Positions 2,715 to 57,159 of a stretch of DNA of 64,000 nucleotides are shown in pieces. Below the pieces are notes generated by a model. That model saw only the letters and a program-made list of their open reading frames with translations. It did no database searches and had not been told where the DNA came from. The stretch comes from Thermodesulfobacteriota bacterium (GTDB lineage Bacteria > Desulfobacterota > Desulfarculia > JACQYL01). Position numbers and translations under genes: made by a program. The stretch's first letter is position 1. Every line of letters begins with the position of its first letter. The DNA is taken from NCBI GenBank assembly GCA_963675595.2, contig CAXXLZ010000002.1:544001-608000 (forward strand). Reading direction: 5' to 3'.

Positions 2715-5700
2715 ATGGCGGAAGAAAAGGGAGGCGGCGGGAGTTCGCTGCCTGTGTCGGCGTTGATTCTGGCCCTGGCCGCCTTGGGCATCCTGGTGGC
2801 GCCCAAGTCGCCTCTGAGAAGCGATCGGCCCGTGCTTTCGCGCCTGCACGAAGCGGCTCCGCAGGAGGACGTGCGGGCCCGCCTGTGGGAGGACCCCTTC
2901 GAGGCCGTGCTCAAGGACGCTCGGGAAAGACGCTCTCGCTCGGGCGCCCGGGCGGGCGCCCATGGCTCCGTGCCGCTAAAGGCCGAAATTCCCCCGCTTC
3001 TCAAAGAGCAACTCGCGGAGGAGGGCCCCACTATTCTGGGCGTGATGACCAACGGGGGTCCCTATGCGGAGGACGGCGAGTGGCGGCTGAGACATCGCTA
3101 CGCCGTGGTTTCGGCCCTGCTGCGTGCCGGTTTTCTCCCTTGGGACGAACGGCACATCGGGAGCTTCTATTACGACTACGGCTCTTCCCGGAGTCCCGGA
3201 AGCAAGGCGCCCCCCACCATGGAACCCCCGTGTCCCAGTGGGGAGCCCAACATGTGCTGTATCGTTCCCTACGAGGTTTTCTGGAAACAGCGAACCGTTC
3301 CCCAAAAGTGCAAGGAAGTGGTCCTGCTGGTTTGGATCAACGACCATGCGAGCCTGCTCGACGGCCGGCCCCTGGCGCGGGTCCTGGAGGTGATTCGCCT
3401 GGCCGATCCCATCGTTGGAACCCAAGCCTCGAACCCTGGACCTTCAGAGTCCCCTCCTCCGCGCCTCAAGATCATCGGGCCCGTGGGGTCCACTCCCCTG
3501 GCCGCGATCTGGCGGGAGCTCATGGCGGCGGAAGCCGAATTGGGCAACCGGAACGATTCCGGAGAGCAGGCGCGGGGCGTTGCATCGACTCCCACCCAAG
3601 AATCGGACGGCGGATCCGACGCCTACGCGATCCACCTCTCCCGAGGCGAGGTGCAATTCTTCTCCCCTACGGCCACGGCCGCCGAACACGACCTGAGGGA
3701 ATGGAGCGATCTCAAGAACGATCCGGACTCGGGCTCCTCCGCAGCCCCGAGTTTGCAGGAAGAGTTCGAGGAGTTCGGAATCCGATTTTACCGCACCATC
3801 CTTACGGACGAGGAATTGGCCGGAGCCTTGGTAGATGAGGTGGCCTTGAGGGCCCACACCGGCAAGAAAAAGATGCATGTGGTTCTGGTGGGAGAGAAGG
3901 ATACCATCTATGCCCGGTCCCTTGCCGATTCCTTCAAGAAAGCCTTTGAAGACCATTCCAACGGGCAACAGGCGTCGGACTCCAAGGATCCGGCTCCCGA
4001 ATTCCAGACAGTGTACTTTTCCTATCTGCGAGGGTTGGACGGCAGACTTCCCGGCGACCCCCAAGACGAAGGCGCGGAATCCGAGGGGAATCAGGAAGAG
4101 TCCAAGACCGATCGATCGAGGGAGGACCGTCCGGTGGGATTCGGCCGTTTCGATTATCTGGAACGCCTCGCCGATCAAATCGCCTTATACGAAAAGGACG
4201 CGAAGGAGAATCGAGACTCCGCGGGAGTGTTGGCCATCGGAATTCTGGGCAACGACGTATACGATAAGCTGCTGGTCATCCAGGCTCTCAGACAGCGTTT
4301 TCCCTTGAAGCTGCTCTTCACCACGGATGTGGACACACGCCTTCTGTATCGGGACTATCGGAAATGGACCCGAAACACCCTGGCGGTTTCCAGCTTCGGG
4401 TTGTCCCTGCATCCCCGCATACAAGGAAGCGTGCCCCCCTTTCGTGATTCCTACCAGACTTCCCTGTTCTTCACCACCCTGGCGGCCCTGGGCACCATCG
4501 GCATTGAAAACGGCCGTCTGATCTACGCAGAGCAAACCGACGTAGACGAACCGCCGGAATCGGCTGTGCGTTTCAAGACCGACCGATCCTGCAATGCGGT
4601 TTCCGCCGCGTATGCGGGAAATGCCTTGTCCGCCCTGCAACCGCAGGTATATGAAATCGGAAGAAGCAGCCTGGTGTATCTCAGCTCAAAGGCCGGTGCC
4701 GGATCACCCGATTCCGGAAAACAAGGCGTTTCCATCTACGGCGAGACCGGTCGCGGCAACCGGGTGTTGGTGGATTTCATCGTGGAATACCTGTTGGTTC
4801 TGCTTCCTCTGGCGTTCGTTCTTTTCTGCGCACTCAGCTATCAGGTTCAGAACGTGCTCTTTCAACTGGGAAACTCCAAAAAAATCTACCTCCCGGCCGT
4901 TGCTCTGGGCGCGGTTCTCCTCGTATCCGCCGCATGGCTTACCAATCACGTCTCCGGTATTCCCCGGGAGGAGCCTATTTCCTTCACCGAAGGGATCAGC
5001 GCCTGGACCACCATCTGGATTCACTGGATCGCCTTCGCCCTGTCCCTGGTCTACTTGGGAATTCATTACCGCAGAATGAACGTAAATCGGGAGGCCATCG
5101 AAACGGAAGAAGGCATGGAGGCGTCTTTCCCGGGAAAGCGCGCCGATTCCGTGCGGAAAAGATCATTCGACTGGAAGATTTTCACGGGGTACTTGTGGCA
5201 GCCGACATCGAACGAAAAATCAGTGGAACCCGAACCAACGGAACCATCGACATCGGGCAAGCCCTCTCCTTCTCCTCCCATTGAAGAGCCCACCGCCGGA
5301 CGCGAGGCAATCTGGTCCGCCTATGTGCGTGCGTCCGAATCATGGCTCAGCCTCATCCGGGCCGTGCTGTTGACCGCCGTGTATTACCTGTTCATGGGGA
5401 TTCTCTTCAGGGAGTTCCATGCCGACAACCTCCTCATTCGAGGAGACCTGACCTATACCGTCTATGAATGGACCGGGCATGTCACTCGATTCCTCTTCTT
5501 CGTGCTCCTGTTCTTCGCTTTCGATCAGGCGCAGAACTGCGCCCGCATGGTGCAGCTATATACCGATCTGGTTCGGGAGCGTTCCGTTCAAGCCCTGCGC
5601 TCCGAAACCGCACCCGCCGATAACCTGGACAGAGACGCCCTGGACCTTGCACATCTCATCGCCAAACGCACGGAATGCGTTTCCCGACTGGTGTTGGCTC

Positions 5701-6074
5701 CCTTTTTCATCTGGTTTTTGCTCATTCTTTCCAGGCTCCGCTTCTTCGAAGGATGGGACACGGGACTCCTCCAGACCTTGGCCCGCATCATCGCGGGTTT
5801 GATCTGCGTCATGGCCGCCGTTACCCTGCGCCGGTCCGCCAAGCGGTTCCAGCAGACCCTGTCGGACGCCCTGGACATCCACCGGAGAAAGGCGGCGCGT
5901 CACGGCAATGAGGAACAGGCGCAACGCATCGCCTCGATTCGGGAGGAAGTAATGCAACTCCGTCGAGGCGCTTTTTCATCGCTCCTTCATCTTCCCATTG
6001 TCCAGGCCGTGCTCTGGCCCTTCACCGGCATCGGCAGCCTGTATCTCATCGACTACCTGGGGGAGTTTTTTTAA
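2715..6074 (+). CDS. Large hypothetical membrane protein (N-terminal anchor, ~650-aa extracytoplasmic region, C-terminal multi-TM region)
   Basis: 1119-aa ORF with RBS GGAGG; hydrophobic N-terminus; several hydrophobic helices after about aa 685. Confidence 0.75.
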   Translation: MAEEKGGGGSSLPVSALILALAALGILVAPKSPLRSDRPVLSRLHEAAPQEDVRARLWEDPFEAVLKDARERRSRSGARAGAHGSVPLKAEIPPLLKEQLAEEGPTILGVMTNGGPYAEDGEWRLRHRYAVVSALLRAGFLPWDERHIGSFYYDYGSSRSPGSKAPPTMEPPCPSGEPNMCCIVPYEVFWKQRTVPQKCKEVVLLVWINDHASLLDGRPLARVLEVIRLADPIVGTQASNPGPSESPPPRLKIIGPVGSTPLAAIWRELMAAEAELGNRNDSGEQARGVASTPTQESDGGSDAYAIHLSRGEVQFFSPTATAAEHDLREWSDLKNDPDSGSSAAPSLQEEFEEFGIRFYRTILTDEELAGALVDEVALRAHTGKKKMHVVLVGEKDTIYARSLADSFKKAFEDHSNGQQASDSKDPAPEFQTVYFSYLRGLDGRLPGDPQDEGAESEGNQEESKTDRSREDRPVGFGRFDYLERLADQIALYEKDAKENRDSAGVLAIGILGNDVYDKLLVIQALRQRFPLKLLFTTDVDTRLLYRDYRKWTRNTLAVSSFGLSLHPRIQGSVPPFRDSYQTSLFFTTLAALGTIGIENGRLIYAEQTDVDEPPESAVRFKTDRSCNAVSAAYAGNALSALQPQVYEIGRSSLVYLSSKAGAGSPDSGKQGVSIYGETGRGNRVLVDFIVEYLLVLLPLAFVLFCALSYQVQNVLFQLGNSKKIYLPAVALGAVLLVSAAWLTNHVSGIPREEPISFTEGISAWTTIWIHWIAFALSLVYLGIHYRRMNVNREAIETEEGMEASFPGKRADSVRKRSFDWKIFTGYLWQPTSNEKSVEPEPTEPSTSGKPSPSPPIEEPTAGREAIWSAYVRASESWLSLIRAVLLTAVYYLFMGILFREFHADNLLIRGDLTYTVYEWTGHVTRFLFFVLLFFAFDQAQNCARMVQLYTDLVRERSVQALRSETAPADNLDRDALDLAHLIAKRTECVSRLVLAPFFIWFLLILSRLRFFEGWDTGLLQTLARIIAGLICVMAAVTLRRSAKRFQQTLSDALDIHRRKAARHGNEEQAQRIASIREEVMQLRRGAFSSLLHLPIVQAVLWPFTGIGSLYLIDYLGEFF

Positions 6075-6223
6075 TGCGGAATTCCGCCATCAGACTCCGG
6101 TTGTTTTTTCATACGGGCTCACGGCATCATTAGGATGCTCTTCGCCGGGTTTTTGGTTTCCATGTTTTTGGTAACCTTTCCGGCCGGGGGGGAACTTTTA
6201 AAAAAGTTCACCCCCCGGACCCC

Positions 6224-7608
6224 CATAAGCGCTAACTTAAGCCTTTTGTTTTGGTGAGGTTTATGGTACCGTTGCCGCCAAAGGAGGTGGCAATGGAGCG
6301 TCTCGTTTTTTCCGAGGAAATGGAAGACTGGGAAGTTCTCCAGGGTTTTCTTCCCGATGGCTGGCAATCCAAAGCAAGGGAACTTGGTGCCGTTGTCAGA
6401 TACCGTAAGTTCGTGGACGCCGAAGGTCTGTTGCGAACGCTTCTGATCCATCTGGCGGAAGGTTGCTCACTTCGGCTGACGGCGGCCAAAGCCAGGTTCG
6501 GCAACATTACGTCGATTTCCGACGTAGCTCTCCTAAAACGACTGAATAAATGCGGAGAGTGGTTTCGGTGGATGGCCTTAGGGGTCATGGAGAAATGGTT
6601 TCGAAAGCTGCCCGCCGTTGTTTTTGGAGAGAATTCACGCATCAGGTTGATCGATGCCTCCACCATTCAAGAACCTGGAAGTACCGGAACGACTTGGAGG
6701 GTCCATTATTCCATACAATTGCCTTCGCTGCGCTGCGACGAAGTCTATGTAACAGACCCCAAGATCGGAGAATCCTTCACCAATTTCAAAGTCCATGGCG
6801 GTGAACTTCTTGTAGCGGATAGAGCCTATTGCACACCAAGAGGAATTCACCATGTCATAGACAACGGCGGCGACGTCCTGGTTCGAATGAAACACCGTGT
6901 CGCCATGGTGGACAAGCAAGGGGAACGATTCCAATTACTCCCTCATCTAAGGACGTTACGTGTAAATAAGCTTGGCGACTGGGATGCATTCGTTCCATTT
7001 GAACAACGCTTGGTTGCAGGTAGAATCTGTGCCATCAAGAAGAGCAAAGACGCCACTGAAAAAGCTCGTAAAGCGATAGAAAAAGAGGCGAGGAAAAAAG
7101 GTCGCCAAGTTACTCCGGACACCCTCGAAGCGGCGGCCTACATATTTGTTTTCACAACATTGGGCCGTGAAATCTCGCCCTCTCAGGTCCTCGAGATGTA
7201 CCGAGGTCGATGGCAAATTGAACTCGCTTTCAAGCGTCTAAAGTCCATTCTCGGTTTAGGCCATCTTAGAAAGACCGACATCGAAGGAGCCAAGGCCTGG
7301 ATCCATGGGAAACTACTGGTGGCTTTCTTAGTGGAGGCCATGATCGCCGCAGGCGAATCTTTTTTTCCCTGGGGATACCCACTCCAAAAAGAACCACCGT
7401 AGAAATCGATGCTTCTGGAGAGAGACCATGTTTATGTTACACCTGCTGAAACAAGCCGTGAACCCTAAACTCGGCTTGGCCGAATGCATTGCCGGCTGGG
7501 ATAACATATCTTTTTATTTGCGAGAACCGCCAAGGAAACGAGCACTTCAGCGGCTGATTCCTCAGACGGAAAGAAGCATAGCAAACAATGCTTAAGTTAG
7601 CGCTTATG
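6224..7608 (+). mobile_element. IS4-family insertion sequence, copy 1 (1385 bp)
   Basis: 19-bp TIR CATAAGCGCTAACTTAAGC; 11-bp TSD CCCCGGACCCC at 6213-6223 and 7609-7619; same length and transposase as 55524-56908. Confidence 0.95.
6293..7402 (+). CDS. IS4-family DDE transposase
   Basis: LIDAS, VADRAY and YRGRWQIELAFKRLK (YREK-type) motifs; RBS AAGGAGG before ATG 6293. Confidence 0.93.
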   Translation: MERLVFSEEMEDWEVLQGFLPDGWQSKARELGAVVRYRKFVDAEGLLRTLLIHLAEGCSLRLTAAKARFGNITSISDVALLKRLNKCGEWFRWMALGVMEKWFRKLPAVVFGENSRIRLIDASTIQEPGSTGTTWRVHYSIQLPSLRCDEVYVTDPKIGESFTNFKVHGGELLVADRAYCTPRGIHHVIDNGGDVLVRMKHRVAMVDKQGERFQLLPHLRTLRVNKLGDWDAFVPFEQRLVAGRICAIKKSKDATEKARKAIEKEARKKGRQVTPDTLEAAAYIFVFTTLGREISPSQVLEMYRGRWQIELAFKRLKSILGLGHLRKTDIEGAKAWIHGKLLVAFLVEAMIAAGESFFPWGYPLQKEPP

Positions 7609-7910
7609 CCCCGGACCCCCCTTCAAAAATCCCCAAGCAGGCCTCACCGCCTCCGGCGGAGAGCCTGAGGGAGAAATAGGGTTGCTCACTAATTTCCAAC
7701 GTTCCTTACATCTCATAAATCGGTAAAGGAATTCCCTTCTCAATAAATGCAGTTTTTAGCCCGAGCCGGATGTCACCCCCCCCTCTCCGCCGAAGGCGGT
7801 GAGGCACTCTTGAAATGCTTTGAAGGGAGCCCGAGGGAAACTTTCTCGAAAGTTTCCCTCGGTGAATGGATGCTTCTGCCCTTCACCAACCTCTCATGGA
7901 GATTCCGACC

Positions 7911-19761: not shown

Positions 19762-19915
19762 TCCTTCACGGGGGACCTTTGTATTGAGTCACAACGTCTC
19801 CGGGGGAACACTGTTCCCCCGGCCCCCCTGACGCGGGCTCCGTCCCTGACGGGACGAAGCCGACCCGGGTGTTCTTGAGGTGCAACGCTTTCGTCGAAAG
19901 ATCCCACGATTGCGG
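19762..19915 (-). repeat. Intergenic repeat R3 (inverted copy)
   Basis: Reverse complement aligns to 44560-44672 and to the flanks of IS4 copy 2. Confidence 0.7.
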
Positions 19916-44559: not shown

Positions 44560-44672
44560 CGCAATCATGAATTTTTCGACGAAAGCGTTCCCGCTTGAAT
44601 GATCGGATCGGCTTCGTCCCGGCAGGGACGGAGCCCGCATAGGGGGTCCGGGGGAAGTGTGTTCCCCCGGAG
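44560..44672 (+). repeat. Intergenic repeat R3 with an empty IS4 target GGGGTCCGGGG (44643-44653)
   Basis: Aligns with the joined flanks of IS4 copy 2 (TTTTCGACGAAAGCGTT...GACGGAGC..AGGGGGTCCGGGGGAA..TGTTCCC). Confidence 0.75.
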
Positions 44673-44765
44673 AAGGAATCGCGGGGGAAAAGTCCGCCCA
44701 AGGCGGCTCTTCCCCCGCCCGTTTTTTCTTTTCAACGGGCCGTCGAACATCCGACGGATAATTCA

Positions 44766-48759: not shown

Positions 48760-50635
48760 GATGAGTTCGTAAAAACCTCTCCGTAAAGGTATCTAGTTGA
48801 AAATATGAATAAAAATGGCATTTATGGGTTGACCTTTCTTTTGGGTCCTGTATGATAAGTATCTGACTTGATTAATAATATGGTCCTTAGGGGGGTTGTT
48901 TTGTTTCGGCCTAAGAGAACGCAAAAGACCATTTTCGACCACGATATTTGCCTTCCCGCAGACAGGATCGAGGCGTTGGAGAAGACGTGGGCCGGTCCGT
49001 TCCGGCGCCTGGTGCTTCCCATGATCGATGAGGAGTCTTTCCGGCCTTTCTACTGTGAGGACAACGGCAGGCCCAACAGACCCGTGGCCATCCTTGTCGG
49101 AGCGTGTGTTTTGAAGGAAATGAACAGCCTGACCGATGCGGAAGTCTTGGGCGCTCTGGACTTCGATCTGCGTTGGCAATATGCCTTCAACATCAACGCC
49201 TTTGAATCTCACGTCTGCCAGAAGACCCTGCACAATTTCCGGACCTTGATTACCGACAACAAGCAAGCGCGGAGCCTCTTTACCGGAATCACGGACGCCA
49301 TCATCGAGACGGCGGCCCTTAGCACGGACAAACAGCGGTTGGACTCCACACAGATCACTTCCAACATGGCTCATCTGAGCCGTCTGGGGCTCTTTACGCG
49401 CACCATCGAGGCGTTCTTGAAACGGCTCCATAAGAAACATCCCAAGTTGTATGAGAAACTGCCCCGACTTTACGACAAGGCCTACTTGAAGCGCGCAGGC
49501 TATTTTGCCGATGCAAAATCATCGCGGGCCAAGCGTCGTCTGGACAAGTCCGCCCGCCATCTCGCCGACCTGGTGGACCGCTTCCGAGGTCATCCGGAAA
49601 TCAGCCGAATGAAAGAATACCGGCTGATGGCCCGACTACTGTCGGAGCAATGCCGTTTCACCGAGGGAGATCCCGACAAAACAGAACTCGAGAAGCCCAA
49701 GGAAATCCCTGCGGACTCCCTGCAGAATCCTTCGGATCCCGACGCCACCTATGGGCGCAAGGGCAAAGGATATAAGGCTTCCCTCACGGAGACCTGCGTG
49801 AAGGAAAATCCCTTCCAGGTGATCACCGATGTGGACGTGGCCCCTTCCTATGACAGCGACCAGAAAGACGTGATGCCCGTTATCGAACGCCTGGAGGAAA
49901 CGGGCCGCAAACCCGAAGAGTTGTTCGCCGACGCAGGCTACGGCAGCGGCGAGAACATCCTTCAAGCTCACGAGCACGGAGTCGAGCTTACCGCTCCGGT
50001 GACTTGCGGAAAAGCGCCGGATCTCAATAAGATGCAGTTGAGTGACTTTGAAACGAACGAGGACTGCACCCAGGTCGTTTACTGTATCCGGGGGCACGCG
50101 CCACTTGAATGCAAGATCGTTGACCGCGGCAAAGCGGTGGAAGCCGTGTTTTCCCGCGAGCACTGTCTCCTATGCGAATTTCTCCCCATCTGTCCGGTAA
50201 AACGGATCAAGGGCGGAAATTATCGACTGAAGTACAAGCGCAAGGACATGGCGACCTCCAAGCGCAGACTACAGCAGGAAAGCCATGATTTCAAAGAACG
50301 CTACAAAATCCGGTCCGGCATCGAGGCCACCATCTCCGAAGCGGATCGGGTCACGGGATTGAAACGATCGTGGACCCGAGGCAAAAAACGGGTCACCTTA
50401 TCTGTTTTCATGAAGGCCCTGGCCATCAACATCAAGAGGTTCGTCCAGAGCCGCCTTGATAAGGCCAAGAAGGCCCTTTCCAACTCGATAGAGGGAGGCA
50501 GCAACGATAATTTCCGTCGTCTTTGTAGCCTATGTCACGATGACAGTAACCTTGGCAGTGTTGCAATGGCCGCTTGAACTTCCAATGCTCCAAAAAACAG
50601 CCCTGTTCGTAAAGGGGGGTTCTTACGACGGCATC
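48760..50635 (+). mobile_element. IS1182/IS5-like insertion sequence (1876 bp)
   Basis: Imperfect TIR GATGAGTTCGTAAAAACC / GGTTCTTACGACGGCATC; 8-bp TSD AACTAATT at 48752-48759 and 50636-50643. Confidence 0.9.
48901..50577 (+). CDS. DDE transposase (IS1182/IS5-like)
   Basis: DNGRPN, RLDST, LQNPSDPDATY, ADAGYG and YKIRSGIEATISE; start inferred at TTG 48901. Confidence 0.88.
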   Translation: MFRPKRTQKTIFDHDICLPADRIEALEKTWAGPFRRLVLPMIDEESFRPFYCEDNGRPNRPVAILVGACVLKEMNSLTDAEVLGALDFDLRWQYAFNINAFESHVCQKTLHNFRTLITDNKQARSLFTGITDAIIETAALSTDKQRLDSTQITSNMAHLSRLGLFTRTIEAFLKRLHKKHPKLYEKLPRLYDKAYLKRAGYFADAKSSRAKRRLDKSARHLADLVDRFRGHPEISRMKEYRLMARLLSEQCRFTEGDPDKTELEKPKEIPADSLQNPSDPDATYGRKGKGYKASLTETCVKENPFQVITDVDVAPSYDSDQKDVMPVIERLEETGRKPEELFADAGYGSGENILQAHEHGVELTAPVTCGKAPDLNKMQLSDFETNEDCTQVVYCIRGHAPLECKIVDRGKAVEAVFSREHCLLCEFLPICPVKRIKGGNYRLKYKRKDMATSKRRLQQESHDFKERYKIRSGIEATISEADRVTGLKRSWTRGKKRVTLSVFMKALAINIKRFVQSRLDKAKKALSNSIEGGSNDNFRRLCSLCHDDSNLGSVAMAA

Positions 50636-55174: not shown

Positions 55175-55523
55175 TTTTCCCGCAGGCTCCCCGAGGGGCC
55201 CCCCAAGCTGTTCCGCGCCCGGCCGCACAGGAACTCCCCGGCACACGGGTCCGTGAAGCCGTATTTCCATGTCTTTGAGAGTATGAGTTCATGATACGCG
55301 TTCAGAGGCTATTCGGGAAAACCTTTTGGAAAAGGTTTTCCCGAACCCTTTCCAAAACTTGTTGAACGGGTTGCTCGCTGCGCGTCACAACCGAGTTAGG
55401 GGCTCTCTCTAAGCAAATTTCCAGGCTCGCAACCATCGGATTTTTCGACGAAAGCGTTGCACTATGTAAATGCCCTGAAAGGCTTCATCCCGATAGAGAC
55501 GGAGCACGCAAGGGGGTCCGGGG

Positions 55524-56908
55524 CATAAGCGCTAACTTAAGCATTGTTTGCTATGCTTCTTTCCGTCTGAGGAATCAGCCGCTGAAGTGCTCGTTTCCTT
55601 GGCGGTTCTCGCAAATAAAAAGATATGTTATCCCAGCCGGCAATGCATTCGGCCAAGCCGAGTTTAGGGTTCACGGCTTGTTTCAGCAGGTGTAACATAA
55701 ACATGGTCTCTCTCCAGAAGCATCGATTTCTACGGTGGTTCTTTTTGGAGTGGGTATCCCCAGGGAAAAAAAGATTCGCCTGCGGCGATCATGGCCTCCA
55801 CTAAGAAAGCCACCAGTAGTTTCCCATGGATCCAGGCCTTGGCTCCTTCGATGTCGGTCTTTCTAAGATGGCCTAAACCGAGAATGGACTTTAGACGCTT
55901 GAAAGCGAGTTCAATTTGCCATCGACCTCGGTACATCTCGAGGACCTGAGAGGGCGAGATTTCACGGCCCAATGTTGTGAAAACAAATATGTAGGCCGCC
56001 GCTTCGAGGGTGTCCGGAGTAACTTGGCGACCTTTTTTCCTCGCCTCTTTTTCTATCGCTTTACGAGCTTTTTCAGTGGCGTCTTTGCTCTTCTTGATGG
56101 CACAGATTCTACCTGCAACCAAGCGTTGTTCAAATGGAACGAATGCATCCCAGTCGCCAAGCTTATTTACACGTAACGTCCTTAGATGAGGGAGTAATTG
56201 GAATCGTTCCCCTTGCTTGTCCACCATGGCGACACGGTGTTTCATTCGAACCAGGACGTCGCCGCCGTTGTCTATGACATGGTGAATTCCTCTTGGTGTG
56301 CAATAGGCTCTATCCGCTACAAGAAGTTCACCGCCATGGACTTTGAAATTGGTGAAGGATTCTCCGATCTTGGGGTCTGTTACATAGACTTCGTCGCAGC
56401 GCAGCGAAGGCAATTGTATGGAATAATGGACCCTCCAAGTCGTTCCGGTACTTCCAGGTTCTTGAATGGTGGAGGCATCGATCAACCTGATGCGTGAATT
56501 CTCTCCAAAAACAACGGCGGGCAGCTTTCGAAACCATTTCTCCATGACCCCTAAGGCCATCCACCGAAACCACTCTCCGCATTTATTCAGTCGTTTTAGG
56601 AGAGCTACGTCGGAAATCGACGTAATGTTGCCGAACCTGGCTTTGGCCGCCGTCAGCCGAAGTGAGCAACCTTCCGCCAGATGGATCAGAAGCGTTCGCA
56701 ACAGACCTTCGGCGTCCACGAACTTACGGTATCTGACAACGGCACCAAGTTCCCTTGCTTTGGATTGCCAGCCATCGGGAAGAAAACCCTGGAGAACTTC
56801 CCAGTCTTCCATTTCCTCGGAAAAAACGAGACGCTCCATTGCCACCTCCTTTGGCGGCAACGGTACCATAAACCTCACCAAAACAAAAGGCTTAAGTTAG
56901 CGCTTATG
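55524..56908 (-). mobile_element. IS4-family insertion sequence, copy 2 (1385 bp)
   Basis: Same TIRs as copy 1; TSD GGGGTCCGGGG at 55513-55523 and 56909-56919. Confidence 0.95.
55730..56839 (-). CDS. IS4-family DDE transposase (identical protein to 6293-7402)
   Basis: Identical translation in the ORF track. Confidence 0.93.
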   Translation of the reverse strand: MERLVFSEEMEDWEVLQGFLPDGWQSKARELGAVVRYRKFVDAEGLLRTLLIHLAEGCSLRLTAAKARFGNITSISDVALLKRLNKCGEWFRWMALGVMEKWFRKLPAVVFGENSRIRLIDASTIQEPGSTGTTWRVHYSIQLPSLRCDEVYVTDPKIGESFTNFKVHGGELLVADRAYCTPRGIHHVIDNGGDVLVRMKHRVAMVDKQGERFQLLPHLRTLRVNKLGDWDAFVPFEQRLVAGRICAIKKSKDATEKARKAIEKEARKKGRQVTPDTLEAAAYIFVFTTLGREISPSQVLEMYRGRWQIELAFKRLKSILGLGHLRKTDIEGAKAWIHGKLLVAFLVEAMIAAGESFFPWGYPLQKEPP

Positions 56909-57159
56909 GGGGTCCGGGGGAATGGTGTTCCCGCGGAGACGGTGTGACCCAACAAAGAAGTTCCCCCCGTGAATGATCACGTGAAGAGATACCCCTCTGA
57001 GGGATTCCAAGGACGCGCACCCGGAACGGAGTTTTTCGGTTGAACGGCGGAAAACCGGTATGCTTTAATGCACCCTCCCTTTTCATGAAGAAAAGTTGCT
57101 CGTCCGGTGTTACCGGGCTTTGGTCTAAACGGAACGAAGACGGTCGAAGGAGCTCCCCC

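Follow-up and report, generated by a model that had tools for sequence, protein, structure and literature searches.

The insertion sequence (IS) described here occurs twice in a 64,000-nucleotide stretch of a Thermodesulfobacteriota genome (contig C2, CAXXLZ010000002.1, C2:544001-608000; hereafter the window), and its closest described relatives are IS4-family elements with published target preferences. One of these, IS421, is listed in a table of PMC6352166 under the IS4 family, IS231 subgroup. For IS186, PMC6925257 gives a preference for GGGG(N6/N7)CCCC and, citing Chong 1985 and SaiSree 2001, notes that the element was first described as GC-specific, while PMC3045373 reports its entry in either orientation at the lon-promoter hot spot. 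IS231A makes an 11-bp duplication at GGGNNNNNCCC, i.e. GGGN5CCC (PMC2577343, Table 1). The IS231 subgroup as a whole is characterized in Table 1 of PMC2266710 by ends of the form CAT-------AA--TAA, direct repeats of 10-12 bp and a size of 1450-5400 bp, and section 6 of the same paper defines the Y(2)R(3)E(6)K motif of the IS4 family.

Targeting of repetitive extragenic palindromic (REP) sequences is documented in PMC1525189 for five IS families, including the IS4 family through ISRm22 of Sinorhizobium meliloti, with 10/10 copies in REP. Copies of IS1397 and ISKpn1 (IS3 family) and of ISPpu9, ISPpu10 and IS621 (IS110 family) also accumulate in dispersed extragenic palindromes (PMC1525189; PMC12288879), and IS110 elements are described as using a guide RNA and inserting in a fixed orientation (PMC11208160). 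An earlier reading of the window alone (the original prediction) had proposed that the present element likewise targets a dispersed intergenic repeat, in a sequence- and orientation-specific manner. Analysis of all its copies in the host genome showed that it is very probably an ordinary autonomous and recently active IS186/IS421-like IS that prefers paired G/C runs about one helical turn apart and enters the repeats mainly because they are rich in this motif.

Structure and classification of the element

Copy 1 occupies window positions 6224-7608 on the plus strand (1385 bp, intact) and is 100% identical by blastn to eight other genomic copies; copy 2, at 55524-56908 on the minus strand (1385 bp), is 100% identical to copy 1. 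Copy 1 begins with a 19-bp left terminal inverted repeat, CATAAGCGCTAACTTAAGC (6224-6242), and ends with its perfect reverse complement (7590-7608, plus strand), and it is flanked on the plus strand by 11-bp target duplications reading CCCCGGACCCC at 6213-6223 and 7609-7619. Around copy 2, CCCCGGACCCC is read on the minus strand on the left, transposase-proximal side (56909-56919) and directly repeated on the transposase strand on the right (55513-55523). Sequence reading and blastn (100%) confirmed the description, in the original prediction, of two identical 1385-bp copies with the same inverted repeats, transposase and 11-bp duplication. The empty sites that it listed were also found: GGGGTCCGGGG at 44643-44653 (plus strand) lies within G5-TCC-G5, the surrounding repeat being of the family that copy 2 entered, with flanks resembling those of copy 2, and the variant near 19815 is C5-GG-C6 on the plus strand (G6-CC-G5 on the minus) at 19816-19828, in the same repeat family.

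The transposase of copy 1 (6293-7402, plus strand; 369 amino acids) is encoded by a single open reading frame (ORF), whose ATG is preceded by a good ribosome-binding site, AAAGGAGG. The protein matched the profile of the DDE_Tnp_1 domain (PF01609, E=3.3e-19) and passed the NCBI model for IS4-family transposases, NF033592, with 139.5 bits (cut-off 115) in a match to positions 5-331 of the 332 in the profile. The Y(2)R(3)E(6)K block could be read directly in the translation as YRGRWQIELAFKRLK and aligned with the same block of IS421. A 55-amino-acid ORF at 7428-7595 had no Pfam or NCBIfam match and was treated as non-coding.

On its sequence, the element is classed as an IS186/IS421-like member of the IS4 family, probably of the IS231 subgroup, and as a distinct new IS of a known behaviour type. 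Family membership follows from the single-ORF PF01609-type DDE transposase with its Y(2)R(3)E(6)K motif, from the 5'-CA ends (the 19-bp perfect repeat starts with CAT) and from a duplication within the 7-13 bp range (11 bp at 15/15 copies). The subgroup signature is present in CATAAGCGCTAACTTAAGC, with AA at positions 11-12 and TAA at positions 15-17, together with the 11-bp duplication; the length of 1385 bp falls below the subgroup range of 1450-5400 bp, and IS421 is short as well. The nearest named relative in plasmid records was IS421/IS186 of E. coli, with a transposase identity of 34% over 95% of the protein (E=3e-57). Under the ISfinder-style rule quoted in PMC2266710, copies of the same element diverge by less than 2% in amino acids or less than 5% in nucleotides, so that at 34% amino acid identity IS421 is a relative and not an isoform.

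The likeness to IS186/IS421 extends from the ends to the target. The terminal 18 nt are equal (the IS421 repeat is CATAAGCGCTAACTTAAGGGTTG), the transposases are 369 (here) and 370 amino acids long and share the YREK block, and in both elements a duplication of 10-11 bp lies between G/C runs, with targets that are used in either orientation, an IS421 copy on NC_019063 being located in G6-ACCACT-C4. The favoured sites differ, however: here the two runs are each 5 nt or longer, lie about 3 bp apart and are mostly on the same strand, whereas the published IS186 target is G..C with N6/7. IS231A resembles the present element in its 11-bp duplication with G/C triplets at both ends (GGGNNNNNCCC), and the end signature and repeat length of its subgroup fit this element, but its published consensus is palindromic (G..C), its host is a Firmicute (Bacillus thuringiensis), and the two elements were compared through published descriptions only. 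ISRm22, likened here by description only, is an IS4-family IS already described in PMC1525189 as living in dispersed palindromic repeats, but section 6 of PMC2266710 places it in the IS4Sa subgroup with conserved target arms. IS1397, ISKpn1, ISPpu9, ISPpu10 and IS621 differ in having other transposase classes and, as described in the cited papers, specific REP recognition, whereas the present element inserts in either orientation at a local signal. The premise behind the original prediction, that target choice in the IS4 family is mostly loose, fails for this branch, since G/C-tract targets are published for IS186 and IS231A and ISRm22 is a published REP-targeter.

Paired G/C runs at the insertion sites

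The host genome (6.79 Mb, 56% GC, three contigs) contains 15 copies of the element by blastn, 12 of them intact (nine at 100% and three at 99.86% identity) and three interrupted by a 1875-bp insert. All 15 are flanked by a perfect 11-bp duplication, and 13 different 11-mers were found. Read on the transposase strand, they are GGGGCACGGGG, CCCCCGGACCC, CCCCGGACCCC (twice, at the two window copies), GGGAGTTCCCC, CCCCCTGCCCC, CCCCTGCCCCC, CCCTTCTACCC, GGGCGGGGGGG, GGGGTCCGGGG (twice), GGGGTGCGGGG, CCCCTAAAGGG, CCGTTCATGGG and GGGCGCGGGGG. The flanking 11-mers vary from copy to copy and are therefore target duplications, not parts of the element ends, as the original prediction had also assumed; the target is accordingly a sequence class rather than one 11-mer. 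The shared 11-mer at both window copies might instead have been carried along as an element end, or the copies might have arisen by segmental duplication and not by transposition. We consider the chance of this negligible, given the variety of 11-mers among the 15 copies, wider flanks that are unrelated or belong to different repeat families, and empty paralogous sites that hold a single copy of the 11-mer.

To define the sequence class, motifs were counted in the host genome after computational removal of all IS copies. Positions 1-3 and 9-11 of the duplication and the next base (position 12) were G or C in 15/15 copies, while the centre was free. The motif (G3|C3)N5(G3|C3) held in register for 14/15 duplications; it has 11,385 sites in the genome (1.7e-3 per position), giving a binomial P=2e-38. 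Pairs of homopolymer runs of at least 5 nt each with a gap of 2-4 bp were far rarer, with only 213 sites, and took 11/15 insertions (10 positions). Strict sites, defined as runs of at least 5 nt with a 3-bp gap, numbered 127, of which eight were occupied. The four sites in unique DNA (sites 5, 8, 12 and 13) had G/C runs at the duplication ends too. The count of empty against filled sites proposed with the original prediction gave 69 occurrences of GGGGTCCGGGG, where about nine are expected from base composition, with four filled exactly and one at a 1-bp offset.

The two runs lay on the same strand (G..G or C..C) in 12/15 insertions, a predominance that matches site availability, as 112/127 strict sites are same-strand.

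Orientation specificity, which the original prediction had drawn from the two window copies, was refuted at three levels. The 11-mer of the window was filled both as CCCCGGACCCC (two exact, one offset by one base) and as GGGGTCCGGGG (two, at C2:1347398 and C1:629189, the opposite-orientation fills). Among all 15 duplications on the transposase strand, six were C-rich, six G-rich and three mixed. With the sites of each repeat family oriented G-rich, family A was entered one way at sites 1, 11 and 15 and the other way at site 3, family B one way at site 10 and the other way at sites 2 and 4, and family C one way at site 14 and the other way at sites 6 and 7. Unrelated duplications or mixed orientation at further copies had been named beforehand as evidence that would speak against the proposed targeting; the copies showed 13 different 11-mers, all with G/C ends, and insertions in both orientations.

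A tandem pair at C2:2114159-2116940 bears on the extent of the signal. It consists of two head-to-tail IS186-like copies separated by a 12-bp spacer, with outer duplications CCCCCTGCCCC and CCCCTGCCCCC, and fits two successive insertions into one C5-TG-C6 site with an offset of 1 bp. Unequal crossing-over as its origin was rejected, because the 12-bp spacer in the middle and a right flank of C4 instead of the expected C5 agree with two insertions offset by 1 bp. The second insertion had an IS end as one flank, and the targeting signal is therefore local.

Homologues in other genomes

In a related genome of another genus (G001), the IS was found at 73-84% nucleotide identity and with the same inverted repeat at contig ends, giving eight junctions that represent six insertions. 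All six abut G/C tracts, and three adjoin the same G-run hairpin repeat that is dispersed in the host genome (described below), in both orientations; two left/right junction pairs show duplications of 10-11 bp. The present element, the G001 IS and IS421 of E. coli have the terminal 18 nt in common, and in the alignment nt 2-18 do not vary.

A scan of species-representative genomes detected 79 homologue loci with 37-62% amino acid identity in Betaproteobacteria, Acidobacteriota, Methanoregula and others. Our own end-finder placed an IS186-type inverted-repeat pair at 58/79 of these loci, and perfect duplications among the 58 were 11 bp long in 26, 10 bp in five and 9 bp in seven. The G/C ends were scored only in the 26 loci with 11-bp duplications: positions 1-3 and 9-11 were G or C in 21/26, and 14/26 had homopolymer triplets at both ends (GGG..CCC in six, GGG..GGG in four, CCC..GGG in three and CCC..CCC in one). 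As the G/C-end rule is kept in 21/26 of the scored homologues, it is a property of the clade.

In one Acidobacteriaceae metagenome-assembled genome (MAG), 5/6 loci (L082, L083 and L085-L087) carry a homologous IS (44% amino acid identity) inside a GTCCCGC-N5-GCGGGAC palindrome; at the sixth locus, L084, the IS ends were not found. GC-rich hairpins, for example GGCGAACGCC, also surround several homologues in Betaproteobacteria, and insertion into REP-like palindromes seems to be a recurrent feature of this clade.

Dispersed repeats, competing readings and significance

In the host genome, dispersed non-coding repeats contain or adjoin 11/15 copies, and these repeats belong to at least three families. 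The repeats form a modular, genome-wide superfamily with a core of G5-7 N3 G5-7 and, after it, a hairpin in which the second G run pairs with a C run to close the stem; examples in the window are found at 6165-6215, 44605-44680 and 19790-19860. The inner hairpin stem covaries between subfamilies (AACTTTT/AAAAGTT, AGGACTTT/AAAGTCCT, CGCTTTT/AAAAGCG, AAGACTTT/AAAGTCTT and others), and the genome contains 224 G5..C5 hairpins when counted by strand, or about 112. An Rfam scan of the whole window at gathering thresholds returned no matches, placing the repeats in no curated RNA family. A link to REP-associated tyrosine transposases (RAYT) and REP doublets forming hairpins (REPIN) was considered and rejected, as none of the three Y1_Tnp (PF01797) loci in the genome has a G-tract hairpin repeat within 1.5 kb. 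The flank of site 9 starts with CATAAC and was considered as a miniature inverted-repeat transposable element with the ends of the present IS, which was also rejected: BLAST match boundaries do not begin at that end, indicating a mosaic of repeat modules.

Repeats hold 109/127 strict sites, and all eight occupied strict sites are among those in repeats (8/8, P=0.28), so availability alone explains the eight insertions. The repeats receive the IS because most motif sites sit there, and the repeat itself is not recognised as such. Of the sequence-specific repeat targeting originally proposed, the strong target preference and the location of 11/15 copies in or beside repeats stood; a single repeat target did not, as there are 13 different duplications, the repeats hit belong to at least three families and four sites are in unique DNA. 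The element also falls outside the REP-specific class, type 1 of Tobes and Pareja, in which, according to PMC1525189, every copy or almost every copy is inserted at one fixed position of the repeat: four copies are in unique DNA, three of them in ORFs, and those in repeats show no excess over motif availability. Compared with ISRm22 (10/10 in REP), 11/15 copies are in repeats here, and what determines insertion is a short tract motif.

Long ORFs are broken by three of the copies. The insertion at site 13 (C1:1458008) divides the HisKA domain of a PAS hybrid histidine kinase, that at site 12 (C1:330186) cuts into a 655-residue NHL-repeat protein near residue 84, and that at site 5 (C2:1206197) is within an 829-amino-acid ORF with no Pfam match. 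The idea of a safe-haven landing site that sets this element apart from other, gene-breaking ISs was abandoned on these grounds.

Recognition of the dispersed repeat itself by the transposase, whether through an extended sequence or through its hairpin, with insertion in a fixed orientation and use of the repeat as a dedicated safe haven, is very unlikely. The share of copies in or beside repeats would suit this reading, as would the shared 11-mer and orientation of the window copies and the fact that the right-hand G run forms the 5' arm of a palindrome in families A, B and C; at the level of four-base runs, moreover, 7/7 occupied positions are in repeats against 25% of sites. But one and the same 11-mer is entered in both orientations, as is every repeat family, the 13 different 11-mers are spread over at least three families and four unique-DNA sites, three of them ORF-breaking, and the strict motif shows no repeat excess. 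The second insertion of the tandem pair, flanked on one side by an IS end, and the homologues in unrelated genomes, which keep the G/C-end rule without these repeats, also speak against it.

A second alternative holds that there is only a loose G/C preference and that the concentration in intergenic repeats comes mainly from selection purging genic copies. Extant copies alone are visible, and most of the 11,385 S3N5S3 sites must be coding, yet only 3/15 copies are in long ORFs. However, the copies are 99.86-100% identical, indicating a recent expansion, three gene disruptions are still present, and the preference for rare pairs of runs of at least 5 nt (11/15 insertions in 213 sites) is too sharp for purging alone. 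IS186 shows a comparable tract preference in the laboratory experiments reported in PMC6925257 and PMC3045373. We regard this alternative as unlikely.

Several observations weigh against motif preference as a complete account of where the element inserts. With the looser motif (G4|C4)N3(G4|C4), all seven occupied positions were in repeats, compared with 205/822 sites overall (P=5.6e-5), so that some context beyond four-base runs matters; we attribute it to run length of at least 5 nt, to which flank or hairpin effects may add. Strict sites whose right flank starts with G or C were occupied in 0/37 cases, versus 8/90 for A or T (P=0.10), and the preference for A/T beside the runs was not significant (P=0.10 and 0.26). 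The base to the right of the duplication was G or C in 15/15 copies, versus 10/15 on the left, a difference that hints at an asymmetry of the ends. Among the homologues, 20/58 loci had no perfect duplication as delimited by the crude end-finder. Finally, only surviving copies can be seen, and part of the repeat bias could stem from the loss, through selection, of insertions in genes.

Under the preferred reading of paired G/C runs as the target, a single DDE/YREK transposase would bind the 19-bp terminal inverted repeats, and both IS ends would be joined to the target with an 11-bp stagger, about one helical turn. Cut-and-paste DDE chemistry, by analogy with other IS4-family elements, is presumably involved. 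Target capture would favour sites where each joining position falls within a short G·C homopolymer run (S3-4 at both ends of the 11 bp), the ideal target being two runs of at least 5 nt about 3 bp apart, with the G-bearing strand irrelevant and either orientation possible. Because each half-site can be G-rich or C-rich, we infer that the transposase responds to the geometry of G·C runs spaced by one helical turn rather than to specific bases. Such paired runs being rare in the genome and mostly located in the dispersed hairpin-repeat superfamily, the IS would end up mostly there.

The insert that interrupts three of the copies is a second IS of 1875 bp, which has 21 intact genomic copies (20 at 100% and one at 99.95%), one of them in the window (48761-50635, minus strand) with an A/T-rich duplication of about 8 bp, AACTAATT. 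Its 569-amino-acid transposase is IS1182-like at 197 bits, below the cut-off of 270. The nested copies are at C2:4294-7560, C2:1344132-1347398 and C2:257322-260588. In the first two, both 3267-bp composites, the IS1182-like insert has the same position (IS nt 101-107, transposase codon 11) and the same orientation. The two composites have different flanks and different 11-bp duplications (GGGCGGGGGGG and GGGGTCCGGGG), and it seems that the defective composite was mobilised as a whole by transposase acting in trans. The IS1182-like element also has a head-to-tail tandem pair, at C2:3852924-3856681, with its copies 8 bp apart, about one duplication length, as in the IS186-like pair (12 bp). Elsewhere in the window, a 1119-amino-acid ORF with several predicted hydrophobic stretches (2715-6074, plus strand) has its 3' end about 150 bp upstream of IS copy 1.

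More speculatively, target recognition by the transposases of this clade may depend on the shape of G·C runs instead of their base sequence, with half-sites that are G- or C-rich, as a non-palindromic exception to the palindromic target-site model; the hairpin superfamily (about 110 hairpins, 109 strict sites) may be an evolved low-cost sink, and relatives in other phyla may likewise have settled in GC-rich palindromes, as at L082-L087. We hold these ideas only tentatively.

The identical duplications in the window represent a sample of two from known IS186/IS231-type behaviour rather than a homing system of a new, orientation-specific kind. Elements whose transposases are only 34-60% identical, from bacteria and from methanogen MAGs, have this end sequence and target rule in common, and same-strand G..G sites serve as well as palindromic G..C sites. 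The element illustrates how apparent repeat homing arises when a simple motif preference meets a repeat family rich in that motif.

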